From Candidatus Buchananbacteria bacterium CG10_big_fil_rev_8_21_14_0_10_33_19 (GTDB taxonomy: Bacteria; Patescibacteriota; Patescibacteriia; 2-01-FULL-39-33): DNA of 64,000 nucleotides. Made by a program: the position numbers and the translations under genes. The stretch lies in the NCBI GenBank assembly GCA_002773855.1, contig PEZY01000012.1, positions 367,847-431,846 on the forward strand, in the 5' to 3' direction. The first letter of the stretch is position 1; every line of letters begins with the position of its first letter. The notes beneath the pieces were generated by a model. That model saw nothing but the letters and a program-made list of their open reading frames with translations, was not told the DNA's origin and did no database searches. Of the stretch, positions 9,691 through 59,370 are shown piece after piece.

Positions 9691-12600
9691 CTATTCCCAA
9701 GCTTCTAGCGGTTCACTGGTACTATACTCGACTGATTCAGGCACATCCTTAACGATATCAATATCTTTGAAGCCATTACTACTAAAGACATTGGAAGTTA
9801 CTAATCTTTTCGCATTATTTTCAATATACCAGATATCAGAAGAGTTAACATACTGAATAAGTGAACCATCGGGATACATTAAGGTATCGGCACTAATAGC
9901 ACAACTATCATCTCGAGTATAATCCGATTCAAACGAATTTTGAATTATAACTAATCTTTCCATCCATTTATCACCAAAGCCAAAAGTCGCTGGACAAAGC
10001 ACATCACCAGCTTTCACTACATAAATAATATTACTACCCTTGAACTGAATAAGCTTACTGCCAGGCCTAACTGTAACATTCTTAGCCACTGGGATAGCAT
10101 CAAATTCCGATTGTGTTACCACCTCGACTAAATGATCAGCCCAAGTGCCAGTTCGCCATGACCAAAAAGTTGGTGAGTTAACAAACAACCGTCTTTTACC
10201 ATCTATAGCTACATGATAAACTGCTGGATCATTAGCCACTTTAATTAACCTACCAGTATAAAATTTCTGTCTAATTAATTCTGTTTTAATAATAACGTTA
10301 TTAACAGTATCATCAGTATCAGTAGATGGAGCTCCAGCGCCTGCTGCTCCGCCACCAGCAGTAGCAGTACAACTAGTAGTTTCATTGGGCTTACCTTCTG
10401 GGATATTACAATTGTTAGTATCACTACATGACCTAGATTTAGAACTAGTAACACAGGCTGACCAAGAAGTGCACGTCCAATTAGGCGTACAAGTCACGCT
10501 ACAACCCTGAACCAAAGTTGGTTTGTCTAAAATAGTACCACAAGCGTTTGCATCAGTACAAGTTCTAGATTGAGAGCTACTGGTACAAGTTGACCAAGCA
10601 CTACAAGACCAATTTTCGATACAGGCTGGAGCAATGTCATACACTCTTTCCTTAACCACTTCAGCATTACCAGAAACATCACTAGCATAGAATCTTAAAG
10701 TTTTAGAAGTTGAAATAGCTAAAGCTGAATTATAAACAGCATTTGGTGTACAACCAACACCTAGACAATAATAAATAGTAGCTGGTTCGCTAGCCGACAA
10801 AGTTACTGATATAGCTGAGCTATAAGTACCACTAGCTTTAGAAGCAGTGGTCACTGGCTTAATCGTATCGGCAGCAGCGGAAGCGGTAGAAAAATAGCCA
10901 AAAACGGCCGCTGTTCTAGTTAAATCATCAATCACAAATTCACTGTATTTAGTAATATTAAAATTATCTAAGTATTTTCGGGCTGTTGGATAACCAGGGC
11001 TACCATAGTAAGCTGGATAAGCATTATCTAAAACCGCAATGTAATAACTCTTATATGGCAATGCATTAGCCGGACCATAAACACTAAACCCGGGTATTGG
11101 CTGAGCAATACCATCAAATTCAGACACTTTATTTAATGGATCAACTACCGGATTATCCCCAATGCCAGTAATAAACACTTTAGACAGTGGATTAGCTCCA
11201 AGTTGAAAATCTATATTCTGCTTAGCCCTATCTAAATAATAACTATTACCAGTTAGTTCATGGGCTAAAATGTAAATAAATGAATACCGAGTACTCATTG
11301 ACAATGTACCAAAGCCAACATTAATAAAATCTTTTTCGGCCACCTTATAATTCCACTGGTCTTCATCTTTCTTAAATTTATCCATTAGCTGACTAAAAGC
11401 TGTCATATAGACCGCTTTTCTCTCAGAATTAGCTCCAGCAATATTATAATAATCCCAACCTCGTCTTAGATTAGAAGCACTATAATAATAATCCGTTTTA
11501 GTCCAACTATTTAATTCATTGGTTGGAACCAAGTTAGTAAAAACATCCTCGTATTTTTGTTCGCCAGTTAAAGCATAAAGTTCTATAGCCGCCCAAGCTC
11601 TAGAATCTCTATTATCATTACTCCAATAACAACCAGAACTAACATCGGTTATACCTAAAGCCGGATTACCCTTAGGATTACAATAGGCCTCTTGTTCTGT
11701 TTTTGTAGTATATGGTGGCGGGTTTTGTTCTGGATGGGCTTCTAAGCATTGCCACGCCAGTAGCGCCTTGTCCCTATACCGCTGAGCATCCGTTGGGAAA
11801 AATGGTTGCATAATCCTAGCGGCTTTAGCTAATATGGCGGCGGCAAAACCAGTATCTTCTGTAGATTTAGTAATCACCCAGTGTTTTCTGGTGTCCAAAT
11901 CAGGCATTTTATCAGACCAAGTTTCAAAAGCCACTTTATTAAAAGTACAACCATTACTACTTACCATTTTAGCTATCCAATCTAACTCCCATTTAGACTC
12001 ATCCAATATATCTGGGACTCCATTATGACTCTCTGGAATATTTAATTGATTATCGGAAAAATGGGTTGGTACTATTTCATACATAGTGAAGTAATTATCC
12101 ACTGCTTCAGCCGCTGTTCTAATATATTTATTATAATCAGCCGCATCAAACCAACCACCAGTAAAGTCAGCTTGAGCACCAATTGGCTCGTTGGCATATA
12201 AATCCGGAGATTTATCTTTAATAGAATTATGATAATAACCAGCCGTTGGTTGAGCCGCTCCTCTGCTCCAAATACCGGCATATTGCGAGGTTAAGGCCAT
12301 GCCACTGCGCTGATAATACAGCGCTCTGGCTGTAGTGTAAAAAACATCATTATATATATTATCTCTAATATCAAAATCATAACTTCTACCAATACCATCT
12401 ATCTGTATATAATACGAACCGGGGGTTTCAAAATTTGTAAAATCCAAATACCACACATCCTCCCCAGTGAAAGGCCGAACGCTGTCATTAATATAAAAAT
12501 TATCTGATTCTGATGATTTTATTAAGGCTCCAGTCAAAACTACTTGACCAGTCGTTTTATTTTTAATCTTTGCTATTAGACCAGCGCTTAAAGTCATTTG

Positions 12601-13749
12601 TCCAGCGTCACCTAAGTAGTTACCCACATAAACCCGTTTTGGTGATTTTGGCAGATAACCAACTTGATTTACTTTAATACTAGAACTAATGTCATTATTA
12701 AAATCAAAAGAAAAATTAACACCTCCAACTTTAGGTAGATTACCTATTATATCCTTGACTTGTATAGAAAGGCTATAATTAGCATTGGAAGAAATTGGTG
12801 ATGCTAAATCTAAATAAATATAATCTTTTACCACAGGAGAAAATGAACTTCCGCTAAAATCAGTCACAAACCTCCTTATGCCCACTGAAGAAACATTTAT
12901 TTTACTATTGTCACTGGAATTCACCAGAGTATAATTGGCGACATTTCTAGCTGATGCGAAATTTAATTTTTCATCAATAGTTAACATTAGATTTTTACTG
13001 TCTAAAACCTCTATAGCCTCTACAACCAAACCTTGGGTGTCCTCTAGAGTAATATCATCAATATAAAAACTTTTTGGAGTTTGACTAGCAGGAACAGAAA
13101 AATAAATATTTCTAAAAGCTCCACCAAAATTACCAACAAAAGCACTGCCAGGTATTACCACTTGTCGATAAGTCCCATCTATGACGCCACCACTCACGTA
13201 GGGTAATATATTTAAATTTTGAGAGGCATCATTACCACCAGAATACTGAATCACTATATCTAATGTATTTGCATAAGTACCGGATGTTGTTCTAATCCAA
13301 AATTTAATAGAATCAACCTCACTAAAATTTAAAACGCCCTGGTTGCCATAACCCACGTCTAACCTTGATTTTGTATGATTACCATCAGGCATATCCATTT
13401 TTAAAGCCTTATTGCCTGTCTTAGATAATAATGGATCACTGATAACTGTCAAAGCGTAACCAGTTGTCAACGCTTCAAAATCCTTATCTTCTTCAAAAAT
13501 TACTTTTTTAACCTCATTTACACAAGAAGCCGAACAACCGTCATAGCTATCCACATTACCATCATCACATTGCTCTGCTAAATCAACTACACCATCACCA
13601 CAAGTAGTAGCCGCAATTGTGAAATCACCTAAAACCATCGATTTTGACTTTATTTTAAATAAAACAAAAATCAAACCCATTATACAAATAATTAATATAA
13701 ACAAAGTCAAGAAATATTTTTTTGATGGTCCTAATTTGAATGTTAGCAT
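9691..13749 (-). CDS. Giant membrane-anchored surface protein with a glycoside hydrolase family 9-like catalytic domain, Cys-rich repeats and a shared C-terminal module
   Basis: N-terminal signal anchor; CGDGVVD…CDDGN Cys-rich repeat; GGWFDAADYNKY resembles the GH9 GGWYDAGD signature, with Gly to Ala in the DAGD box; Fn3/CHB_HEX_C-like segment; two C-rich repeats; G/A linker; C-terminal ~130 aa homologous to the C-terminus of ORF 724-2904. Confidence 0.55.
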   Translation of the reverse strand: MLTFKLGPSKKYFLTLFILIICIMGLIFVLFKIKSKSMVLGDFTIAATTCGDGVVDLAEQCDDGNVDSYDGCSASCVNEVKKVIFEEDKDFEALTTGYALTVISDPLLSKTGNKALKMDMPDGNHTKSRLDVGYGNQGVLNFSEVDSIKFWIRTTSGTYANTLDIVIQYSGGNDASQNLNILPYVSGGVIDGTYRQVVIPGSAFVGNFGGAFRNIYFSVPASQTPKSFYIDDITLEDTQGLVVEAIEVLDSKNLMLTIDEKLNFASARNVANYTLVNSSDNSKINVSSVGIRRFVTDFSGSSFSPVVKDYIYLDLASPISSNANYSLSIQVKDIIGNLPKVGGVNFSFDFNNDISSSIKVNQVGYLPKSPKRVYVGNYLGDAGQMTLSAGLIAKIKNKTTGQVVLTGALIKSSESDNFYINDSVRPFTGEDVWYLDFTNFETPGSYYIQIDGIGRSYDFDIRDNIYNDVFYTTARALYYQRSGMALTSQYAGIWSRGAAQPTAGYYHNSIKDKSPDLYANEPIGAQADFTGGWFDAADYNKYIRTAAEAVDNYFTMYEIVPTHFSDNQLNIPESHNGVPDILDESKWELDWIAKMVSSNGCTFNKVAFETWSDKMPDLDTRKHWVITKSTEDTGFAAAILAKAARIMQPFFPTDAQRYRDKALLAWQCLEAHPEQNPPPYTTKTEQEAYCNPKGNPALGITDVSSGCYWSNDNRDSRAWAAIELYALTGEQKYEDVFTNLVPTNELNSWTKTDYYYSASNLRRGWDYYNIAGANSERKAVYMTAFSQLMDKFKKDEDQWNYKVAEKDFINVGFGTLSMSTRYSFIYILAHELTGNSYYLDRAKQNIDFQLGANPLSKVFITGIGDNPVVDPLNKVSEFDGIAQPIPGFSVYGPANALPYKSYYIAVLDNAYPAYYGSPGYPTARKYLDNFNITKYSEFVIDDLTRTAAVFGYFSTASAAADTIKPVTTASKASGTYSSAISVTLSASEPATIYYCLGVGCTPNAVYNSALAISTSKTLRFYASDVSGNAEVVKERVYDIAPACIENWSCSAWSTCTSSSQSRTCTDANACGTILDKPTLVQGCSVTCTPNWTCTSWSACVTSSKSRSCSDTNNCNIPEGKPNETTSCTATAGGGAAGAGAPSTDTDDTVNNVIIKTELIRQKFYTGRLIKVANDPAVYHVAIDGKRRLFVNSPTFWSWRTGTWADHLVEVVTQSEFDAIPVAKNVTVRPGSKLIQFKGSNIIYVVKAGDVLCPATFGFGDKWMERLVIIQNSFESDYTRDDSCAISADTLMYPDGSLIQYVNSSDIWYIENNAKRLVTSNVFSSNGFKDIDIVKDVPESVEYSTSEPLEAWE

Positions 13750-24587: not shown

Positions 24588-25140
24588 TGTCTAGATAAAT
24601 CTATAAGCCGAATTCTGTTCCTGATGGGTCTGTCTCCAAATAGTCTTTTGTTTATAAGTTTTCACAATTTTGAAATAAATTTTTTAAACAATTTTTAAAG
24701 TTTAGTGGAGCTAAGCTGAAAAAATTTTTATAAAATTTAGACAAAATTTGGAAATTTTAACAAATATGCTATTTGGTGACAGACCCATACAAAGAGATGA
24801 CAATCTATCTGGATTAACTATTACTAGTTAATTCTAGCCCCCTACTATATTTGGGGTTGCACTAAGTAGAGTTTACCACGAACTGCCGGTCACCGACAGC
24901 TGAGTCACGTAGCTTTAGACTAAGGGGATATCCCGTTCTTATTCTAAAACATCATGACACTTTTCACCTTTCATTTGCCGAAGCAAACTAGTATTGTCTC
25001 TGTGGCACTGGTCCTAACTATACCTCGCGATATAGCTGGTGGGCGTTACCCACTACCATGACTTTAATCATAGTGATTAAAGAGTGTTCGGACTTTCCTC
25101 TCCGATTAAAACCGGAGTAGTCATCCAACTTATCTAGACA
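24588..25140 (-). ncRNA. rnpB: RNase P RNA (bacterial type A) with a long AT-rich insertion
   Basis: Ordered conserved elements on the minus strand: P1 (5' gucuagauaag / 3' cuuaucuagac), P3 hairpin, P4 5' strand GAGGAAAGUCCGAAC, GGUAACGCC, AGUGCCACAGAGA, GGUGAAA, GGUAAACUC, and P4 3' strand ACAGAAUUCGGCUUAU with compensatory GG/CC to AA/UU change versus E. coli. A consensus promoter puts the TSS at P1. Confidence 0.8.
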
Positions 25141-25145
25141 GTCAT

Positions 25146-25174
25146 ATTGTATCATAAATATAGTAAAATGTCAA
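25146..25174 (-). promoter_or_regulatory. Promoter of rnpB (TTGACA-17-TACAAT)
   Basis: -35 TTGACA (complement of 25169-25174), 17-nt spacer, -10 TACAAT (complement of 25146-25151); predicted TSS coincides with the 5' end of RNase P P1. Confidence 0.65.
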
Positions 25175-30848: not shown

Positions 30849-32552
30849 TTAAACTCCAGTACCCTCTTGACTGGTGTCTTCTATGACTGTTACCTTTCTA
30901 AATAATTTACGGTGCATCGAAGAAACAAAAATACTCATCTCCTCCATATTAAGCAGATAACCCAGTAATCCATAACCCAATAGACCCACACTACCAGCTA
31001 CAAAACCTTGAAATAAAATGCCCAAAAAGGTTTCGGTGACCACATACATATTAATCAAGTACAGCGATGAGTATGTGAACAAGCCGGCACCCAATGAGGC
31101 AAAGACGATTCTAAAAGATGAGTCCATTATTTTACGACCATCTAACCTGCCAATACTATGTCTTAAGGCCAACATTAAAATAAGCAAATTAAACAACGCT
31201 GCGACCGATATAGCCATTGGCATGGATAAGATTCGTAAATCAGTAGTGTGCCATAAATCTGGCACTTTTAAAATAGCTACTACAAAAAATGAAAACCAAT
31301 TATCAAAACTAAACACCCAGGCAAAGAAAAATAAACTACCTAAGTTAATAAATAAATCTACTATCCCAATAAAAAATGGCGTCTTGGTGTTATGCAAAGC
31401 GTAAAATCCCCTGACTATCAGAGGTAGTGCTCCTTGAGCAAACAAACTAATAGAAAATATAGCCAAAGCTGCTGCCGTTAATCTAGTATCTGTCCAACTA
31501 AACTGCCCGCTACCCAAAATCACCCGAACAATTTGAGCTCGCAAGACATATAACAAAACCGACACTGGCACAATAAAAAATAATATTTGTCGAAAAGTGG
31601 TCGAAATTGTAGCCACAAAATCATCCATTTTTTTACTAGTCGCCAAGCTCGACAAAACTGGCAAAGCGGCTACCGCAAAAGACACACCAAAAATTCCCAA
31701 AGGAAAACTTTGCAAATTATTGGCCAAATTATATATCGCCAAAGAACCAACCATTAATGTTGAAGCAAAAATAGTAGTGATTAAAAAATTAAGTTGATTA
31801 ATAATTAAGGTCAAAGTTCTTGGGATCATTAATTTACCAACTTTTCTAACATTGCGATTATTCAGACCAAAAACTAATTCATAGCGGTAACCAGTAAAAA
31901 ATGTGGCTGGCAACTGAACCAACATATGCATCAAAGAACCTAGGACTACTCCCCAGGCTAAGCCATAAACGCCAAAATATTCTACCAAATACAGAGCTCC
32001 AATAATAATACCGACATTATAAAAAACTGGAGCCAAGGAATAAATAAAAAATCGTTTGTGAGATTGTAAGATAGAACTAAATATAGCCGAGATACCTAAA
32101 AATATAGGACTCAAAAACATTATCCTAGACAAACCAACAACCATGTTTAATTTTTCACCAGAAAATCCTGGTGTTATCAGTGACATAAGTTGTGGTGCCA
32201 GAATAAATAAAGTAGCACAAACTAAAACTACTGCCAAAAAAGCAATATTTAAAATACTATTTATTAAATACCAAGCTTCTTTTTTATTGCCAAATTTTTT
32301 ATTTAGTAATGCTATAAAAACCGGAATTACGCCGGCTGAAATAGCCCCTAAAATTAATAGATTATAAACCAAATCTGGTAATCTAAAAGCCGCATAATAA
32401 GCATCCAACACATCCCCCGCCCCAAACTGAGCGGCCAATACTCGATCACGAAATATACCTAAAAATCGACTCACTAAAGACAAGGCGCCGATGATAATCG
32501 CCGCTGAAGTAATATTTTTAGCTTGGGAATTGATTATTTTTTTAATCATCAA
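30849..32552 (-). CDS. murJ: Lipid II flippase MurJ (MviN)
   Basis: 14-TM MOP-superfamily protein with MurJ N-terminus (LGIFRDRVLAAQFGAGDVLDAYYAAFRLPD). Confidence 0.75.
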   Translation of the reverse strand: MMIKKIINSQAKNITSAAIIIGALSLVSRFLGIFRDRVLAAQFGAGDVLDAYYAAFRLPDLVYNLLILGAISAGVIPVFIALLNKKFGNKKEAWYLINSILNIAFLAVVLVCATLFILAPQLMSLITPGFSGEKLNMVVGLSRIMFLSPIFLGISAIFSSILQSHKRFFIYSLAPVFYNVGIIIGALYLVEYFGVYGLAWGVVLGSLMHMLVQLPATFFTGYRYELVFGLNNRNVRKVGKLMIPRTLTLIINQLNFLITTIFASTLMVGSLAIYNLANNLQSFPLGIFGVSFAVAALPVLSSLATSKKMDDFVATISTTFRQILFFIVPVSVLLYVLRAQIVRVILGSGQFSWTDTRLTAAALAIFSISLFAQGALPLIVRGFYALHNTKTPFFIGIVDLFINLGSLFFFAWVFSFDNWFSFFVVAILKVPDLWHTTDLRILSMPMAISVAALFNLLILMLALRHSIGRLDGRKIMDSSFRIVFASLGAGLFTYSSLYLINMYVVTETFLGILFQGFVAGSVGLLGYGLLGYLLNMEEMSIFVSSMHRKLFRKVTVIEDTSQEGTGV

Positions 32553-33697
32553 CTTGTCTTAACAATTTCTCGTGCGATCATTAATTCTTCATTAGCCTCA
32601 ATTACTATATTTTTAAATTTGGATAAATGTCTAATTTTATCCAAAACAATTTTTCGCACCGCCGGACTTCTTTCGCCAATCCCGCCAGTAAAAACTATTA
32701 AATCTACACCATCCATAGAAATGGCCAGTTGACCAATATATCTAACCACATCATAAACAAACATATCCAAAGCTAATTGAGCTTTGGCTTTTTGATTATC
32801 AGTAAATATTTTGTTACTAGAATAATCCAAAACTTTATGTCCACTAGCTAGCAGTATCTCTCGCATATCCATGGTGCCAGCAATAGCTAACAGCCCAGAT
32901 TCTTGATTAAAAACTTTAGTGATCTCACTGGTAGACATTTTTAATTCATTAATCATATATAACGGAATAGAAGCGTCTAAATCCCCGGCTCTAGTTGACA
33001 TGGTTAAGCCCTCAAGTGGTGTAAAGCCCATGGTAGTATCAATAGCTAATCCATTTTTAGTAGCCGTAATACTACACCCACTACCTAAATGACAAGTAAT
33101 AATTTTAGCTTTACTAATTTTTAGTTTAGCTTTTTTAGCACCTTCAATTGCTGAATACTGATGAGACAAGCCATGAAAACCATAACGCCTAATACCTAAT
33201 TTATAAAACTTGCTTGGCAAGGCATAGCGATGTATGTATTCGGGAATATCTGCGTAATAGGCCGTATCAAAAACTGCTACATGCTTGGCCTGAGGTAATA
33301 ACTTTAAAGCCGACTCCGCACAAGCTAAATTAATCGGATTGTGTAGCGGGGCTAATTTATTATACTTAGCCAATTTATTAATTATCCCTTGATTTAATTT
33401 TAAAGGTTGATTGTATGTGCCGCCACCATGAACTACCCGATGACCAACCAATTTTATATCCGGCAAAATAGTTTTAAGTTGCAACAGCACTTCGGCTAGT
33501 GCTTGTTCATAATCTAAAATCCCTGGAGGATATTTTTTGAGCAATCTATCTTTACCTAGACCATCGACAGACATAAAAGAATTTTTAAGACCAATTCTCT
33601 CCACAATGCCGCTTAGTTCTTCTGATAAATTTGAAGCCGAAAAAACCTTGAATTTCAAGGTGGCGCTGCCAGAATTAATGACTAATATTTTTTTCAT
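32549..33697 (-). CDS. ackA: Acetate kinase
   Basis: MKKILVINSGS.TLKFKVF N-terminus, HGGG and ASKHD-like fold motifs; 4-bp overlap with murJ. Confidence 0.8.
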   Translation of the reverse strand: MKKILVINSGSATLKFKVFSASNLSEELSGIVERIGLKNSFMSVDGLGKDRLLKKYPPGILDYEQALAEVLLQLKTILPDIKLVGHRVVHGGGTYNQPLKLNQGIINKLAKYNKLAPLHNPINLACAESALKLLPQAKHVAVFDTAYYADIPEYIHRYALPSKFYKLGIRRYGFHGLSHQYSAIEGAKKAKLKISKAKIITCHLGSGCSITATKNGLAIDTTMGFTPLEGLTMSTRAGDLDASIPLYMINELKMSTSEITKVFNQESGLLAIAGTMDMREILLASGHKVLDYSSNKIFTDNQKAKAQLALDMFVYDVVRYIGQLAISMDGVDLIVFTGGIGERSPAVRKIVLDKIRHLSKFKNIVIEANEELMIAREIVKTS

Positions 33698-34411: not shown

Positions 34412-34461
34412 AAATTGATAAATTGATAATTTATATTGGTAATTTTATCATTTTTTGGCAA

Positions 34462-34492
34462 ATAAAAAAAGCCCCGCAATTGCAGGGCTAGG
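34462..34492 (-). terminator. Terminator downstream of lipoprotein gene 34505-35287
   Basis: agccccgcaa/ttgcagggct hairpin with A-tract upstream on the plus strand. Confidence 0.55.
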
Positions 34493-34504: not shown

Positions 34505-35287
34505 TTAATAATTGAAGCCGATGTTGACATTAACGATGCCACCAGAGTATGGGATTAGAACTAACCCCGCAATGGCGTCGAAGATATCGAAATTCAGATA
34601 GGTGGAATATGGAGTGCCGATCAAATCAACCAGTTGAATAGTGGCATGATGACCATCAAAGCCAATAGGCAACCAACCAGCAAAATGCAGGGCGGTACCA
34701 ACTTTGGTATAAGCCATGAAATACTGATCACCAGTGTCGGTGACAATAGTCGCGTCACCACTTGCACTCCAATCACCTGGCATGTTATCAATTTGGAATT
34801 CAAAGAAATAGGAATCCACCAATTCGAACATGATGTTCAAGTTAGTAGTACTGCCAGCTGTCACGACCACGATCACAGAATCAAAAAACAATCTTTTATC
34901 GTGAACGTCATAAGCTTCGATCCAAACACTATAATTTGCTGGTACAATGGACAATTCGCCAAAGTAATTACCAGCGGCATCGACATCGATGACAAACGGA
35001 TCAGCATAAGCATTTGTTTGTGCTGGTGGGACACTAGAGTCTTCACCAAACCAAATGCTAATATAATCGATATTGTCTCGAAACATGTCGCCAATCTGGG
35101 TTTGAGTGTGGCTGAGTTTGGCACTTTGGTAATCATAAATATTACCAGAAACTACAACCTTCCCGGTTGTCGACGGAATTGGTGGTTCGTCTGCCGACGG
35201 ACCACTATATTGATCCGTCGGAGGACAACCCATATTAATTGAAGCCATGATTATAGCCAAAATTAAATAGGATGTTCTCGGTTTCAT
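34505..35287 (-). CDS. Lipoprotein, GC-rich, paralog of 35490-36323
   Basis: Lipobox (INMGC); C-terminal ~130 aa aligns with the neighbouring paralog (DNMPGDW…FDG…FDIFD…VNV.F); local GC is well above genome background. Confidence 0.55.
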   Translation of the reverse strand: MKPRTSYLILAIIMASINMGCPPTDQYSGPSADEPPIPSTTGKVVVSGNIYDYQSAKLSHTQTQIGDMFRDNIDYISIWFGEDSSVPPAQTNAYADPFVIDVDAAGNYFGELSIVPANYSVWIEAYDVHDKRLFFDSVIVVVTAGSTTNLNIMFELVDSYFFEFQIDNMPGDWSASGDATIVTDTGDQYFMAYTKVGTALHFAGWLPIGFDGHHATIQLVDLIGTPYSTYLNFDIFDAIAGLVLIPYSGGIVNVNIGFNY

Positions 35288-35447
35288 GTTGTTTTCCTTC
35301 TTGGCCTGGCCCTAATTGGACTCAGGTGTTGGTGGTGGTGGGGAGAATTCCCCTTTTCCAATCTAACTGAAGTTGGTTGGAAGGTACAATGAACTGTTAA
35401 TATTAGCATAGAGAGTCATTATTGTCAATAGCTGACCAAAAATAAAA

Positions 35448-35473
35448 CCCGCGATCACATTGTGACCGCGGGG
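35448..35473 (-). terminator. Terminator after lipoprotein gene 35490-36323
   Basis: cccgcgatcaca-t-tgtgaccgcggg long hairpin, A-tract on plus / U-tract on minus. Confidence 0.6.
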
Positions 35474-35489
35474 TACTCTTAACAGTAGG

Positions 35490-36323
35490 CTAATACTCTT
35501 GGAAATAAACGTTGACGTCCAAGCGTCCCAGCCATTCGGGGAAGATGTACGGTACGTTCATAAACCAGTAATCATTCTCCCGCAGCACATCAATGTCGAA
35601 GATGTTGAACTGCAACTCGGTAGCATAGTCCTTGCCATCCAGATCAGTGACAATCAAAGCCGATTCATCGACTCGACCATCAAAATCAATCGGCAAACTG
35701 GCCCGAAAAAGAACCACATATTCATTACTGCCCGAGTAAGGATAAACGCGCGAATACTGGCAGTAGTAGCCTTCCCCATTGACCACGAGATTGGCATAGC
35801 CATACTCACTATAGTCACCGGGCAGATCATCGACCACAAACTGAAACAGATAATGCTCGGACAAACCCAGTAATACTCCAAGTCGTCCGGATCTACCAGC
35901 GACTACGACCAAACTGGTGTTATAGACAAAAGTCTCCATGCCTAATTCATCGTAGGCCGTCACATACAAATTGTATTCACCGGCCGGTACCAATATACTG
36001 CCACTGTACGACCCATTAATTACATCAATGGAGTGGTAGTAAGATCCAATTTCCATCCCACCACCGCCTTTACCAATACCGCTGTCGGCCGGGAAAAAAA
36101 CGAAGGCCAACTGCCGAATCCGCGGCTTATGAAACTCCACAATGTCGTTCCAGTCCATCAGGGCCTTGCTCTCGTTGAAGTCGCCTTCAATGATGACATT
36201 GCCCATGCCGGCGGGGATTAAGAGTTCTTCCTCTACCGGTTCGCTGATCGGTGTGGTCGCTGGACAACCAGTTAACCCCACTACCAACATCAAGGTGGCC
36301 AGGATCACAAGAATTTTCTGCAT
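35490..36323 (-). CDS. Lipoprotein, GC-rich, paralog of 34505-35287
   Basis: Probable start MQKILVILATLMLVVGLTGC (lipobox) with AAGGAAGAG RBS; the ORF-track start at 36398 is an upstream extension; consensus promoter TTGACA-17-TATAAT at 36442-36470. Confidence 0.55.
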   Translation of the reverse strand: MQKILVILATLMLVVGLTGCPATTPISEPVEEELLIPAGMGNVIIEGDFNESKALMDWNDIVEFHKPRIRQLAFVFFPADSGIGKGGGGMEIGSYYHSIDVINGSYSGSILVPAGEYNLYVTAYDELGMETFVYNTSLVVVAGRSGRLGVLLGLSEHYLFQFVVDDLPGDYSEYGYANLVVNGEGYYCQYSRVYPYSGSNEYVVLFRASLPIDFDGRVDESALIVTDLDGKDYATELQFNIFDIDVLRENDYWFMNVPYIFPEWLGRLDVNVYFQEY

Positions 36324-36441
36324 GTTCTCTTCCTTTCGAATTAAGGTTATTAGCACCATACTAACAACCGATTGATGGAAATAAACCCGACTAGACAAAT
36401 CGAATTTACCATTTAACTATGTCAATGTTCTAATGTTTTGT

Positions 36442-36470
36442 TATTATATCATATATATTACACTTTGTCA
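36442..36470 (-). promoter_or_regulatory. Consensus sigma70-like promoter (TTGACA-17-TATAAT) for lipoprotein gene
   Basis: Exact -35 and -10 hexamers with a 17-nt spacer, read on the minus strand. Confidence 0.6.
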
Positions 36471-36580
36471 ATCAAATCCATAAATAATCACTCTTAAACG
36501 GCTATATTAGGCTATTTTTACTCAAAAACCTAAAAACCCAGCAACCACTGGGTTTTTAAATAATCCAATTCTTTGTATCT

Positions 36581-39232
36581 CTATTTTCTCTCACGAATAA
36601 CAGCTTGAGCCGCGGCTAATTTGGCAATTGGCACCCTAAATGGCGAACAGGACACGTAATCAAAACCTTCTCGATGACAAAACTCCACACTACTTGGCTC
36701 ACCACCGTGTTCACCACAAATCCCAACCTTTAAATTACTGCGAACACTTCTTCCTTTGGCGACCGCAATTTTCATCAATTCCCCCACTCCCTCTTGATCC
36801 AACACCTCAAACGGATCAGACTCATAAATACCTTTGGCAACATATTCTTTCAAAAATTTACCAGCATCATCTCGACTAAAGCCGCAACCCATCTGAGTTA
36901 AATCATTTGTACCAAAAGAGAAAAACTCCGCTTCCTCGGCAATCTTGTCGGCAGTGACCGCCGCTCTTGGAACTTCAATCATCGTGCCAATTTTATAATC
37001 CATTTGTATGCCAGCATTTTTTATAATCGTGTCTGCAATTACTACGGCTCTCTGTTTCAAAATAGAAAATTCTCGACTACTACCAATAAGTGGAATCATA
37101 ATTTCGGGCACGATTGGATTGCAACGACCACAAGTCGGACACTCACTAGAAACTTCAACTGCCGCTTCCATAATTGCTTGGACTTGCATATCATAAATTT
37201 CCGGATAAGTAATGGCCAGACGACAACCGCGATGACCCAACATCGGATTAAATTCGTGTAAATCAGAAATTTTGGCTTTTAATGTTCCTGCATCCACTTC
37301 CATTTCTCTAGCTAGTTCATAAATATCTTTTTCACTAGTCGGCAAAAATTCATGTAACGGTGGATCTAAAAGTCTAATAGTCACAGCATAACCTTCCATA
37401 GCATGAAATAAACCAATAAAATCTTTCTTTTGGTATGGTAATAGTTTGGCCAAAGCTTTTTTACGACCTTCCAGATCAGCTGACAAAATCATTTCCCGAA
37501 CCGCTTTAATTCTATCACCTTCAAAAAACATATGTTCAGTTCGGCATAGACCAACGCCTTCAGCTCCAAACCTTCTGGCCACCTTAGCATCATGAGGTGT
37601 ATCCGCATTAGTTCTAATCTTCAATCTTTTGATTTCGCTGGACCAATTCATAATTGTTCCAAAATCACCACTTAATTCCGGATCTTGAGTATTTAATTTC
37701 CCCAAATAGACTGTGCCATCTCCCCCATCTAAAGTGATAAAATCACCTTCTTTAACTACTTCACCAGTAGTCTTCAAAGTAAACTTGCGACCTTTTTCAT
37801 CAATAGAAATATCAGCACAACCAGCTACACAACAAGTACCCATGCCTCTAGCCACCACGGCGGCATGTGAAGTCATACCACCTCGAGCGGTCAAAATACC
37901 TTTAGCACTAAGCATACCATCAATATCTTCTGGTGATGTTTCTATCCGCACCAAAATCACATCTAGTCCAGCCTGAGTCTTAGCAAAGGCATCAGCAGCT
38001 GTAAAAGTAACTTGACCAACTGCGGCCCCCGGAGAAGCTGGCAAACCAGTCGCTACCACTTCTGCCTCACCCTTTGATATTGGATCTAATTGTTTGTGTA
38101 ATAATTGATCTAATTGATTGGGATCGACTTTCATCAACGCCTCTTCTCGATTCAAAACTCCCTCTTTGACCAATTCCACAGCAATTCGCACCGCCGCTGC
38201 CGCTGTTCTTTTGCCATTTCTAGCTTGTAATATATATAATTTACCCTCTTGAATAGTAAATTCCATGTCCTGCATATCACGGTAGTGTTTTTCTACTCGA
38301 TCACAAACAGTCACCAGTTCATCATAAATAACTTTATTTTGAGTTTCAAGATCTGATACCGGTTTAGGCGTTCTAATGCCAGCTACCACATCTTCACCTT
38401 GGGCGTTCATTAAATACTCACCATAAAATTTATTTTCACCAGTACTAGGATTACGAGTAAAGCAAACACCAGTGCCAGAATTATCATTCAAATTTCCAAA
38501 AACCATCGCCTGAATATTTACAGCGGTACCAATTAAATGCTTAAGATTGTTTAATTCTCTGTATCTTTTAGCTCGATAATTATGCCAAGAATTAAACACC
38601 GCATCAATAGCCAACTGTAATTGCTCTCTCGGATCTTGGGGGAAATCCACACCCTTTAATTCGACAATCTTAGCACGATATCTTTTGACAATTTCCTCTA
38701 AATGGCCGGCTGTTAAATCGGTATCGTATTCTGCGCCCACTGTATCCTTAACATTTTCTAAAATCTCTTCAAACTCACTACCGTCAACTTCCATTACTAC
38801 ATCACCAAACATCTGAATAAACCGACGATAAGAATCCCAAGCAAATCTAGGATTATTAGATTTTTCGGCCAAAGCTTCAACTGACTTATCATTTAAACCT
38901 AAATTTAAAATTGTATCCATCATACCTGGCATAGAAGCAGCCGCACCAGACCGAACAGAAACTAAGAGTGGATCATGAGTATCACCCAATTTCTTGCCCA
39001 TTTTTTCTTCTAATTCATTAAGTTTTTTTTCTATCTGATCACGCACCGCTTGTGGATAATTTTTGTCATTTTTATGATAAGTCTCACATACTTCAGTAGT
39101 CACTGTAAACCCAGGCGGCACCTTAATACCAAGACTACTCATTTCAGCTAGATTTGCACCCTTACCACCTAAAACTTCTTTTAAATCCTTATTTCCCTCT
39201 TCAAAGGAATAAACATATTTTTTTTCAGACAT
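36581..39232 (-). CDS. ppdK: Pyruvate, phosphate dikinase
   Basis: About 880 aa; ATP-grasp N-domain, central phospho-His domain (GGMTSHAAVVARGMG), C-terminal PEP-utilising TIM barrel. Confidence 0.9.
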   Translation of the reverse strand: MSEKKYVYSFEEGNKDLKEVLGGKGANLAEMSSLGIKVPPGFTVTTEVCETYHKNDKNYPQAVRDQIEKKLNELEEKMGKKLGDTHDPLLVSVRSGAAASMPGMMDTILNLGLNDKSVEALAEKSNNPRFAWDSYRRFIQMFGDVVMEVDGSEFEEILENVKDTVGAEYDTDLTAGHLEEIVKRYRAKIVELKGVDFPQDPREQLQLAIDAVFNSWHNYRAKRYRELNNLKHLIGTAVNIQAMVFGNLNDNSGTGVCFTRNPSTGENKFYGEYLMNAQGEDVVAGIRTPKPVSDLETQNKVIYDELVTVCDRVEKHYRDMQDMEFTIQEGKLYILQARNGKRTAAAAVRIAVELVKEGVLNREEALMKVDPNQLDQLLHKQLDPISKGEAEVVATGLPASPGAAVGQVTFTAADAFAKTQAGLDVILVRIETSPEDIDGMLSAKGILTARGGMTSHAAVVARGMGTCCVAGCADISIDEKGRKFTLKTTGEVVKEGDFITLDGGDGTVYLGKLNTQDPELSGDFGTIMNWSSEIKRLKIRTNADTPHDAKVARRFGAEGVGLCRTEHMFFEGDRIKAVREMILSADLEGRKKALAKLLPYQKKDFIGLFHAMEGYAVTIRLLDPPLHEFLPTSEKDIYELAREMEVDAGTLKAKISDLHEFNPMLGHRGCRLAITYPEIYDMQVQAIMEAAVEVSSECPTCGRCNPIVPEIMIPLIGSSREFSILKQRAVVIADTIIKNAGIQMDYKIGTMIEVPRAAVTADKIAEEAEFFSFGTNDLTQMGCGFSRDDAGKFLKEYVAKGIYESDPFEVLDQEGVGELMKIAVAKGRSVRSNLKVGICGEHGGEPSSVEFCHREGFDYVSCSPFRVPIAKLAAAQAVIRERK

Positions 39233-42128: not shown

Positions 42129-42224
42129 AACTTTGACATTACTAATTTAATCAGATATAATATATTTCTGTCGCACATTTAAAGAACAATATCTAAAAAC
42201 AAAAACCAGAAGGATATTTACCAA

Positions 42225-43348: not shown

Positions 43349-43376
43349 AGTCTCAGACAATGAGACTTTTTTTATT
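43349..43376 (+). terminator. Terminator after zinc-finger array
   Basis: agtctca-gacaa-tgagact + T7. Confidence 0.7.
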
Positions 43377-44547
43377 TACCAACACTATAAAATCTATTGC
43401 GTCTTTTGCGTCGCCCCGCCGAATTACCAAATCGATGAGCTTCATCTCTAGCTTTAGTAATTAATTCCCGTTGGGACTTAGCCAACTCTTTAACGGCCAT
43501 ACTAGTTTTAATTGGAAAAACCATTCTATCTCCGGCCAATTTAGACAAGCCAATAATTGGAATACTAATACCAATTCTTTTTAAAACTTGATTGACATAA
43601 TCAATCTGTGGCTTACCGCCATCAATTAAAATTAAATTAGGAAATGGCCACTCAATGTGTTTAAATCTTCTCGTCAACATTTCTTCTAGACTTCTCAAAT
43701 CATCACTAGCTGGCGCCGTTTTAATATTAAACAAGCGATACTGATCTTTAGCTAATTGACCATTAATAACCACTGACATCGCGCCAACCGTTTCTTGACC
43801 AGTAAAGTGTGAAATATCATAACCCTCTATTCGATTTTTACCATGATTATTACTAAGTTCATCTTTGGTAATTAGTGTCACATCTTGAATATTTTTTAAA
43901 GCCGATAACACTTCGGGATTTTCTTTTTTTAATTTTGCCAGCAACCTTTTCTTTTCACCTTTAAACAATAAAACAATATTTAAAATATTTTTCTTATAAT
44001 CTTTTTTATTAATTTCCCCAATACAAGTACCGGGACATAATCCCACTTGATAATCAAAACAGGGTTTACCAGAATTTGGCGTGCAAGTACTATAAGGGAA
44101 AATCCGTCTGATAATTCGTAAAGTATTTTTTAACAACGTGGCATTTTGATAAGGTCCAAAAATATAAGCATCGGTAGTTGGAAACTTATTTAATTCTCGT
44201 TCCCGAATAATAATGGGGTAAGCATAATCTTTTTTAGAAATTACAATAAAAATAAACGACCGATGATCCTTATCCTTCACATTATACTTAGGCCAATGTT
44301 TTTTAATCAAATTAGCTTCCAAAATAATCGCTTCTAACACTGTGTCGGTTTGCTGGTGTTTAATATTTTGCGCTAAAGACACCATTTCACTAATTCGCGA
44401 ATCAATATCGAGTCGAAAATATTGCAAAACTCGACGCCGCAGACTAGTGGCGCGACCAATATAAAGAATCTCGCCCTTTTGGCCGATGAACATATACACC
44501 CCCGGTGTTAATGGTAAATTTTTCGCTAAATCTTTAATGTTTTTCAT
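43372..44547 (-). CDS. uvrC: UvrC-like excinuclease, short form (GIY-YIG + RNase H-like endonuclease domain; no UVR or (HhH)2 domains)
   Basis: N-terminal GIY-YIG (GVYMFIGQKGEILYIGRATSLRRR), Cys-rich box CFDYQVGLCPGTC, C-terminal IEGYDISHF…LILIDGGKPQI endonuclease domain; only 391 aa. Confidence 0.65.
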   Translation of the reverse strand: MKNIKDLAKNLPLTPGVYMFIGQKGEILYIGRATSLRRRVLQYFRLDIDSRISEMVSLAQNIKHQQTDTVLEAIILEANLIKKHWPKYNVKDKDHRSFIFIVISKKDYAYPIIIRERELNKFPTTDAYIFGPYQNATLLKNTLRIIRRIFPYSTCTPNSGKPCFDYQVGLCPGTCIGEINKKDYKKNILNIVLLFKGEKKRLLAKLKKENPEVLSALKNIQDVTLITKDELSNNHGKNRIEGYDISHFTGQETVGAMSVVINGQLAKDQYRLFNIKTAPASDDLRSLEEMLTRRFKHIEWPFPNLILIDGGKPQIDYVNQVLKRIGISIPIIGLSKLAGDRMVFPIKTSMAVKELAKSQRELITKARDEAHRFGNSAGRRKRRNRFYSVGK

Positions 44548-44560
44548 AAATTAACTGCTA

Positions 44561-44589
44561 TTGACAAAATACCATAAATATGATATAAT
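44561..44589 (+). promoter_or_regulatory. Perfect consensus promoter TTGACA-17-TATAAT
   Basis: TTGACA at 44561-44566, 17-nt spacer, TATAAT at 44584-44589; drives small gene 44638-44832. Confidence 0.65.
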
Positions 44590-58886: not shown

Positions 58887-58945
58887 AATTAAAGTATATC
58901 AATAATTTAAAAAGAAGAATACTTTAATTTGTTTTATGCTCGGGG

Positions 58946-59108
58946 GCAGGGATTTACGACGTAAACCGCCTGCCAAAAGCAGGACGGTTTACTCTGTCCT
59001 GGGTTGGCGTCTAATCTGCCACCGGCAGATTATTCGACGTTCGCTGTGTCGTTTCGGCTTCCGCCTCCACTCCTGGCTCACTTCCAACCCGTTCGAATCC
59101 CTGCCCCC
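58946..59108 (+). other. GC-rich structured element (~165 nt) of unknown function beside tRNA-Gln; tRNA-derived ends
   Basis: Closed by a 13-bp helix (5' gggggcagggatt / 3' aatccctgccccc). The 5' end belongs to a 27-nt direct repeat of the tRNA-Gln 3' end. The 3' end is an inverted 18-nt copy of the tRNA T-loop/acceptor. Internal hairpins (caggac…gtcctg; atctgcc-acc-ggcagat). A bidirectional terminator follows at 59121-59152. Confidence 0.4.
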
Positions 59109-59120
59109 TCCGAAAAATAA

Positions 59121-59152
59121 AACAAAAACACCGCTTCCAGCGGTGTTTTTGT
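59121..59152. terminator. Bidirectional hairpin terminator (A-tract/T-tract flanked)
   Basis: acaccgc-ttccag-cggtgt hairpin between aaaaataaaacaaaa and tttttgtttt. Confidence 0.65.
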
Positions 59153-59158
59153 TTTATG

Positions 59159-59229
59159 CTCGGGGGCAGGGATTCGAACCCCGATACCTTGGACCAGAAC
59201 CAAGAGTCCTACCGTTAGACGACCCCCGA
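59159..59229 (-). tRNA. tRNA-Gln (anticodon CUG)
   Basis: Minus-strand cloverleaf folded by hand: acceptor UCGGGGG/CCCCCGA (U1:A72), D-arm GUCU-AACGGUA-GGAC, anticodon arm CUUGG-UUCUGGU-CCAAG, T-arm CGGGG-UUCGAAU-CCCUG, discriminator G; CCA not encoded. Confidence 0.8.
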
Positions 59230-59370
59230 ATAATATACTTTTTATATATAATAGCTACAATATCCCCCTATAATACCACAAAAAGACTTAAATATCAATA
59301 TTAACTCTACTCAAAATCATTAAATCAAGTTATAATAGCCTTAGAACCTTTATAACCAAGGAGTGAACCA

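Follow-up and report, generated by a model that had tools for sequence, protein, structure and literature searches.

The subject of this analysis is a tandem pair of lipoprotein genes, referred to as LpB and LpA (together, the Lp genes), on the minus strand of a 64-kb stretch of DNA (the window) from an uncultured groundwater bacterium of the Candidate Phyla Radiation (CPR) whose genome has a low guanine-plus-cytosine (GC) content of 34.3%. The duplication that produced the pair is old, its locus is kept in related genomes, and the high GC content at third codon positions (GC3) of the B-type gene, which is represented in the window by LpB, persists across genomes whose own GC3 differs widely. 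The explanation that we favour, with moderate confidence, is that the pair has been inherited vertically, and that the B-type gene encodes a surface lipoprotein expressed at a very high level and is subject to gene-specific selection that keeps the GC of its synonymous sites up.

35490..36323, minus strand: LpB, B-type lipoprotein of 277 amino acids, lipobox L-T-G-C, GC3 0.576
34505..35287, minus strand: LpA, A-type lipoprotein of 260 amino acids, lipobox N-M-G-C, GC3 0.406

Codon composition and its persistence across genomes

The overall GC content is 0.42 for LpA and 0.47 for LpB, compared with 0.343 for the window. Relative to the 47 other open reading frames (ORFs) of the window, which have a mean GC3 of 0.259 (standard deviation 0.042, maximum 0.371), the GC3 values of LpA and LpB correspond to z-scores of 3.5 and 7.5. 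The GC content at second codon positions (GC2) is not raised in either gene, and since GC2 is normal while GC3 is high, the shift reflects codon choice rather than amino acid composition. The same shift is found in three lineages, with C in third position at a frequency of 0.30-0.36 compared with a background of 0.10, and G at 0.27 compared with 0.15. The two-fold NNY codon families all move strongly towards C (TTC 47% vs 6%, TAC 45% vs 12%, AAC 46% vs 13%, GAC 42% vs 13%), as does ATC (33% vs 10%), and G-ending codons are raised alongside them (CAG 83% vs 32%, AAG 60% vs 21%, and also GAG, CTG and CCG).

The genes for the remaining secreted proteins and lipoproteins, both in the window and at related loci, do not depart from background GC3, so the codon constraint is specific to this lipoprotein gene family. 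A preliminary description of the window had called the two genes GC-richer than their surroundings, which these values bear out, and had proposed amino acid and codon constraint as one possible cause; the codon half of this proposal stands, while the amino acid half fails on the normal GC2, and the uniform GC3 among secreted proteins that it had named as a ground for doubt is not what is found. Elsewhere in the window, the only other “ORF” with a GC3 above 0.4, at 58936-59304 on the plus strand (GC 0.48), overlaps a transfer RNA (tRNA) gene at 59159-59229 on the minus strand and is probably not a gene.

Loci that carry family members in other genomes are denoted below by L001, L002, L012 and so on, and the window locus by W. 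The GC3 of the B-type gene lies between 0.55 and 0.73 in 11 genomes, while the background GC3 of the same genomes ranges from 0.24 to 0.69. Given as B-type gene/background, the values are about 0.56-0.58/0.26 for W, 0.63/0.29 for L002, 0.59/0.31 for L001, 0.55/0.24 for L012, 0.63/0.45 for L015, 0.59/~0.53 for L021, 0.71/0.65 for L017, 0.68/0.30 for L011, 0.59/0.41 for L020, 0.66/0.38 for L024 and 0.73/0.69 for L023. A regression of B-type GC3 on background GC3 over these genomes has a slope of 0.27 and an intercept of 0.52, and in the eight genomes whose background is below 0.5 the B-type gene exceeds it by 0.28 on average. The quantity that is constant across genomes is the absolute GC3, not the rarity or commonness of particular codons. 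The B-type genes of L011, L020, L023 and L024 stand in unrelated genomic contexts and have high GC3 there, so the property goes with the gene and not with the locus.

The A-type paralog, which lies on the same strand 200 bp from the B-type gene, differs little from background GC3 in three genomes out of four (0.32/0.29, 0.30/0.24 and 0.49/0.45) and is intermediate in W (0.41/0.26). At the start codon of the B-type gene, the GC content steps from 0.29-0.31 in the 150 nucleotides upstream to 0.50-0.55 in the first 150 coding nucleotides, as measured in the four genomes of lowest background GC3 (W, L002, L012 and L011). Neither the near-background A-type gene nor the step at the start codon would be expected if mutation or recombination acted on the whole region, so such a cause is unlikely.

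Anatomy, expression signals and age of the locus

The ORF of LpB as called spans 35490-36398, and its best start is the ATG at 36323, because this codon is preceded by an AAGGAAG Shine-Dalgarno sequence and yields a canonical signal peptide, MQKILVILATLMLVVGLTGC. With the canonical lipobox that follows, the N-terminus qualifies LpB as a bacterial lipoprotein (a substrate of Lgt and LspA), the criterion, applied by eye, being a signal peptide that ends in [LVI][ASTVI][GAS]C. The lipobox of LpA is atypical; its orthologs have F-V-G-C, T-V-G-C or, in L012, the canonical L-A-G-C, and the versions in L002 and L015 are looser. Both proteins have G-C-P after the signal peptide, and BLASTP aligns them with 29% identity across 242 residues (E = 4e-29), nearly the whole mature protein. 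The protein PIS06037.1 of Candidatus Buchananbacteria bacterium CG10_big_fil_rev_8... is identical to LpA. Each gene forms a transcription unit of its own, which runs from a near-consensus sigma-70 promoter to an intrinsic terminator and has a strong Shine-Dalgarno sequence. The expression signals and the flanking genes, whose identities are backed by Pfam matches at the orthologous loci, are as follows.

36581-39232: ppdK, flanking the lipoprotein pair on the LpB side
36443..36471, minus strand: LpB promoter, TTGACA-17-TATAAT, 12/12 matches to consensus, extended -10 TG; kept in L002 and L012
36324..36436, minus strand: predicted LpB 5' untranslated region, ~113 nucleotides, GC ~0.35, with the transcription start placed from the -10 position
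35438..35472, minus strand: LpB intrinsic terminator (narrower limits 35448-35472), 11-bp stem (8 G-C pairs) and T tract; L002 copy almost identical
35400..35428, minus strand: LpA promoter, TTGACA-17-TAATAT, 10/12, extended -10 TG
34460..34489, minus strand: LpA intrinsic terminator (narrower limits 34470-34489), stem of 8 bp followed by a T tract; kept in L002 and L012
33833-34411: gene for a pduL-type phosphotransacylase, flanking the pair on the LpA side
32549-33697: ackA, beyond pduL

The preliminary description had recognized two adjacent minus-strand lipoprotein genes, each with its own promoter and a strong terminator, between the acetate-formation genes and ppdK. This picture holds throughout, except that the paralogy, which had been placed in about 130 C-terminal residues, extends over the 242 residues given above. 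The promoters and terminators are kept at the L002 locus although the surrounding intergenic DNA has diverged. The predicted 5' untranslated region of LpB, which ends in the Shine-Dalgarno sequence, is partially conserved with L002, and no Rfam match was obtained in it or anywhere else in the lipoprotein region. The perfect TTGACA-17-TATAAT sequence occurs three times in the whole window, once as the LpB promoter. Promoters with 11-12 of 12 consensus positions, of the type TTGACAAA...TGnTATAAT, together with ribosome-binding sites of the AAGGAG type, are found at eight of the 11 B-type genes, while the best promoter-like sites upstream of 31 other window genes mostly reach 9/12, with one at 11/12. 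The consensus promoters and ribosome-binding sites of the B-type genes argue for very high expression.

The two further perfect sites, at 42133-42161 and 44561-44589, are on the plus strand and face along it, and the latter resembles the LpB promoter (83% identity across 35 nucleotides). A bacterial ribonuclease P RNA (Rfam 126 bits) lies at 24757-25136 on the minus strand, directly downstream of an 11/12 consensus promoter at 25146-25174 on the same strand.

The arrangement of the pair recurs in related genomes. The gene order in L002 (Logan SRR33452760) is ppdK, B-type gene (281 amino acids), A-type gene (245 amino acids), pduL, ackA; in L012 it is ppdK, B-type gene (355 amino acids), A-type gene (263 amino acids), without pduL and ackA downstream. 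L015 (Candidatus Buchananbacteria E14_maxbin.167) keeps the order of ppdK, B-type gene and A-type gene with two small genes between the paralogs, and in L001, L017 and L021 the B-type gene is directly upstream of pduL. By neighbour joining, W, L002, L015 and L012 have their A-type genes in a single clade, branching in the order of the flanking genes, and the B-type tree broadly follows the flanking-gene relationships. Since the A and B clades each hold several of these genomes, the duplication predates their lineages.

Several details of these loci were observed in passing. In place of pduL and ackA, L012 (10924-15589) has genes for a 645-amino-acid secreted protein and a TSP3-like protein, and a gene of the ADP-forming acetyl-CoA synthetase type (CoA_binding, Succ_CoA_lig, ATP-grasp_5), which is an alternative acetate-forming enzyme at the equivalent position. 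At the 3' end of the gene for the secreted protein (12605-12682), L012 differs from L013 and L014 by 11 single-nucleotide polymorphisms in 78 bp, while the rest of the 4.7 kb is identical; the cluster looks like a local patch of recombination or repeat conversion. The two small genes of L015 (10882-12161) are a nucleoside deoxyribosyltransferase-like gene and an ORF of 71 amino acids, and an uncalled gap of 850 bp separates its ppdK from its B-type gene. The uvrC gene of the window (43372-44547) has a synonymous divergence (dS) of only 0.28 and 95% amino acid identity relative to L002 (128-1300), compared with dS of ~1.0-1.3 for its neighbours, which suggests recent recombination between the W and L002 lineages at uvrC.

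The dS of the flanking genes is ~1.0-1.5 between W and L002 and 1.3-2.1 between W and L001, and both values are saturated. Under a two-state relaxation model with an equilibrium GC3 of ~0.27, a gene that started at 0.65 would now have decayed to 0.33-0.46, and a present value of 0.58 is reached only from an ancestral GC3 that is 0.89 at the least and exceeds 1 at the upper end. Because such an ancestral value is impossible, neutral decay of a donor's composition does not explain LpB. LpB is also the fastest-evolving gene of the neighbourhood, with 52-54% amino acid identity compared with 82-95% for its neighbours, a nonsynonymous divergence (dN) of 0.40 compared with ~0.08, and a dN/dS of ~0.23.

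Explanations for the maintained GC3

The favoured explanation supposes that a gene-specific force on synonymous sites keeps the GC3 of the B-type gene at about 0.55-0.73 against the AT-biased drift of the genome, and that the A-type duplicate has largely lost this force. Its likeliest cause would be selection tied to very high expression: GC-rich codons may give a more structured, longer-lived and efficiently translated messenger RNA (mRNA) for a very abundant envelope protein. The mRNAs of the Lp genes have predicted folding energies of -30 to -39 kcal/mol per 120 nucleotides, compared with -16 to -27 for other window genes, and folding z-scores of -3.0 to -3.9 relative to synonymous shuffles, which is suggestive only of mRNAs more structured than their shuffled counterparts.

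Several observations weigh against this explanation. The very high expression of LpB is predicted solely from the quality of its promoter and ribosome-binding site, and an Akashi-type test shows no association of GC-ending codons with conserved residues (odds ratio 1.2). G- and C-ending codons rise together, unlike the pattern of classical translational selection, and the only ribosomal protein gene in the window, that for L21 (6312-6614), has a GC3 of 0.21, so GC-rich codons are no general mark of high expression in the host genome. The B-type genes of W, L002 and L001, the closest three, are separated by nearly equal distances, with dN of 0.40, 0.42 and 0.46, while the flanking genes pair W with L002, and these star-like distances leave room for recombination or allele replacement. 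The background GC3 of some loci is computed from only 3-7 genes. As for mRNA structure, three of 25 control genes reach a folding z-score of -3.2 or lower, and RNAalifold, when compared with per-sequence synonymous shuffles, also scores pduL and ackA as “significant”, so this control is inadequate. Parsimony polarization of AT-to-GC and GC-to-AT changes, which is subject to saturation and parsimony bias, produces a spurious AT-to-GC excess in the neighbouring genes and yields only 19 events for LpB.

A related but doubtful possibility is that a floor, specific to the gene and independent of the lineage, is set on the synonymous GC of the B-type genes and acts on the nucleic acid itself, as in the genes for ribosomal RNA and tRNA. 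The mRNA may serve a second role or depend on a given thermodynamic stability; alternatively, GC-biased repair or conversion may be recruited to the gene. The adjacent A-type duplicate would be a natural control that has lost the floor. If this is true, the family would be a rare natural case that isolates selection or biased conversion acting on bacterial GC in one gene. Whether selection or GC-biased gene conversion holds bacterial genes above the mutational GC equilibrium is debated, and the lipoprotein family is a compact test bed for the question, since the B-type gene has a GC3 near 0.6 in genomes of 34% to 55% GC beside a tandem paralog of the same fold, on the same strand, which has relaxed to background.

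Explanations that invoke the import or exchange of DNA must account for the same facts. Atypical composition is routinely read as horizontal transfer, and the preliminary description had accordingly suggested the recent acquisition of a duplicated secreted-protein module from a higher-GC donor, its composition not yet ameliorated. The GC3 z-scores, the self-contained transcription units and the very small number of close homologs are in keeping with this suggestion, but the pair or its B-type member is found at the ppdK/pduL-ackA locus in every relative examined (L002, L001, L012, L015, L017 and L021), the duplication is older than those lineages, and with dS saturated, neutral decay would have erased the signal. 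The promoters and terminators, moreover, are of the host type and conserved, and there is no integrase or transposase among the neighbouring genes, no flanking tRNA gene and, by blastn, no flanking direct repeat. Recent acquisition thus deserves very little credence, and the routine reading is wrong here, where the anomaly is ancient and maintained. It is very improbable that low-GC lineages have kept replacing the gene in place with xenologs of GC-rich relatives such as L017 and L023, whose family members have a native GC3 of ~0.7. GC-rich CPR genomes with family members do exist (L017, L021 and L023), two of them share the adjacency to pduL, and the B-type distances are star-like; yet each low-GC B-type gene has its closest relatives among the B-type genes of other low-GC genomes (54-56% identity), with only 36-38% identity to those of L017 and L021, the flanks have diverged too far to permit homologous exchange (61-63% amino acid identity in pduL), no near-identical donor was found among ~15 billion proteins, and independent recent events would be needed in at least eight lineages. 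GC-biased gene conversion is a serious rival, though it too is unlikely. The B-type gene would be a fast-evolving surface antigen or receptor that recombines frequently, sometimes by replacement of the whole allele, and the bias of heteroduplex repair would raise GC at all weakly constrained sites. The rapid evolution of LpB, the failure of the distances among W, L002 and L001 to follow the flanks, the equal rise of G- and C-ending codons and their even spread over conserved and variable sites are all consistent with such a process; the low dS of uvrC shows that recombination between these lineages occurs, and a raised GC3 in recombining genes is documented for many bacteria (PMC4450053). Conversion tracts should ignore gene borders, however, and the effect ends at the start codon and leaves the A-type paralog 200 bp away unaffected in three of four genomes. 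The size of the excess and its equal level in 11 genomes and five different genomic contexts also speak against conversion, as does the lack of any polymorphism in the Lp genes within three sampled populations, the window population being clonal over six samples.

Two further explanations place the cause within the gene. Classical translational selection for tRNA-matched codons (NNC over NNU) in a highly expressed gene would account for the shift of the two-fold NNY families and would fit the near-consensus promoter and ribosome-binding site, but the rise of G-ending codons, the lack of enrichment at conserved residues, the unbiased L21 gene and the constancy of absolute GC3, rather than of codon rarity, across genomes make it improbable. 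The least credible explanation is that a hidden overlapping element, such as an antisense protein gene or an embedded structured RNA, forces the composition. Long ORFs (202 and 124 amino acids) do lie opposite the pair, and although the one opposite LpB is within the lengths produced by synonymous shuffles, the 225-codon stop-free run opposite LpA is matched by none of 300 shuffles. The antisense stop-free runs in the L002 and L001 orthologs, however, are only 41-74 codons long (41 opposite the LpA ortholog of L002), so the antisense ORFs were rejected as genes for want of conservation, as the preliminary description had anticipated in calling them spurious. In favour of a structured RNA is a conserved hairpin in the 5' coding region of LpA, but this is only ~30 nucleotides long and lies in the less GC-rich A-type gene, Rfam has no match, and the B-type genes share no conserved nucleotide block and have no counterpart of the hairpin.

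35194..35221, minus strand: hairpin in the LpA coding region, CCGACGGAU...GUCCGUCGG, directly after the lipobox Cys codon

The hairpin is of interest in its own right. It recurs in L002 (about 10036-10065), L012 (about 10075-10101) and L015 (about 12235-12261), and in three genomes the arms have the same sequence although dS is saturated. L015 has a single compensatory change from A-U to G-C, by which both encoded amino acids are replaced (T to A and S to P). In W the predicted folding energy is -28.8 kcal/mol over 76 nucleotides (z = -3.7). The hairpin may serve as a palindromic operator or as an element for pausing on, or processing of, the mRNA.

The protein family and its relation to known systems

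LpA and LpB belong to an undescribed family that is seen only in CPR genomes. Word-indexed searches find only 2-3 relatives of each protein, and the family becomes visible only by exhaustive HMMER search, which yields 78 representatives at E <= 1e-3 and 18 at E <= 1e-30; profile scans of metagenome and genome contig collections added no loci. Where a source is named, it is Candidatus Buchananbacteria, except in one record labelled Falkowbacteria and another labelled Saccharibacteria. Searches of Pfam, NCBIfam and PDB sequences with LpA and LpB gave nothing significant, and, apart from the Beta_helix matches given below, Pfam has no match at E <= 1 for the two window proteins or at E <= 0.01 for 47 family members. 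The UniRef label of LpA, carboxypeptidase regulatory-like domain protein, was rejected, there being no Pfam match of the CarboxypepD_reg type. Nearly all members have the lipobox L-x-G-C-P (L-[AT]-G-C-P) after the signal peptide, and the motifs LPGEY, LPxDFDG and IFD are common to the family. Some members, ~520-550 amino acids long, have a C-terminal extension of ~250 amino acids, in which two match the Pfam family Beta_helix. The extension is carried by P0015, P0022, P0027 and P0028 (L020 850-2505), and in P0022 it is as GC3-rich as the core (0.62 vs 0.57).

The structure model of LpB, with a predicted local distance difference test (pLDDT) score of 87.7, has a short linker after the lipid anchor and two beta-sandwich domains. 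The structures closest to it are those of Bacteroides putative adhesins and type V pilin-like lipoproteins, with a template modelling score (TM-score) of 0.27 and ~115 residues, or one domain, aligned. Each protein, with its lipid anchor, short linker and two beta-sandwich domains, is most likely an adhesin-like or surface-coat protein with a predicted surface location, and the family probably supplies major surface components of CPR bacteria, whose surface and host attachment are poorly known.

The resemblance to the two-domain lipoprotein adhesins and type V pilins of the Bacteroidales (PDB 3pay, 5cag and 3liu; Mfa2, Mfa3 and FimA) is limited: the TM-score is low, there is no sequence similarity and no Pfam match to the Lp proteins, and the phylum and envelope type differ.

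Genomic islands share with the Lp pair a sharp compositional contrast with the flanking DNA. Most islands are AT-richer than their host, while the Lp pair is GC-richer; the pair also differs in standing at one locus across species, without absence or patchy occurrence there, in having no mobility genes or repeats, and in keeping its composition through saturating divergence.

The lpp gene of E. coli encodes a very abundant envelope lipoprotein and has an unusually stable, highly structured mRNA. Like lpp, the Lp genes are small self-contained lipoprotein transcription units with a strong promoter and a strong terminator, although a structured mRNA is here only proposed. The lpp protein is unrelated to the Lp proteins, and to our knowledge lpp has no GC3 anomaly relative to its genome.

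Recombination-linked elevation of GC3, mainly in non-optimal GC-ending codons, has been described in bacterial core genes (Lassalle et al. 2015, PMC4450053). The Lp genes are like those core genes in having GC3 above the mutational equilibrium in particular genes, but they differ in that a single family is raised by ~+0.28 on average, and the effect stops sharply at the borders of the gene and spares the paralog beside it. The GC3 differences in the core genes are reportedly modest and statistical over many genes.

The nearest precedent for a surface lipoprotein gene that is GC-rich relative to its genome is the vls/vlsE antigenic-variation locus of Borrelia, in which the genes have ~49% GC in a genome of ~28.6% GC and a coding-strand GC skew of ~0.52, and in which the anomaly is kept across species while the sequences diverge, so that its authors invoke strong selection maintaining GC content (PMC11499132). 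In vls, moreover, G runs occur in clusters, silent cassettes form contiguous arrays and gene conversion is segmental, whereas the coding-strand skew of the Lp genes is 0.13-0.17 with no G-quadruplex (G4) motifs, and searches of the 64-kb window and the 20-kb loci by tblastn, blastn and hmmsearch found no extra copies, fragments or silent cassettes. A target of a diversity-generating retroelement was likewise rejected, since no part of the genes is repeated in the window and no reverse transcriptase is present among the neighbours at any locus. The folds are unrelated, that of VlsE being alpha-helical and that of the Lp proteins a beta-sandwich. Neither a vls-like system nor a genomic island, the Lp pair is probably a case of a compositionally anomalous surface-protein gene maintained by selection.

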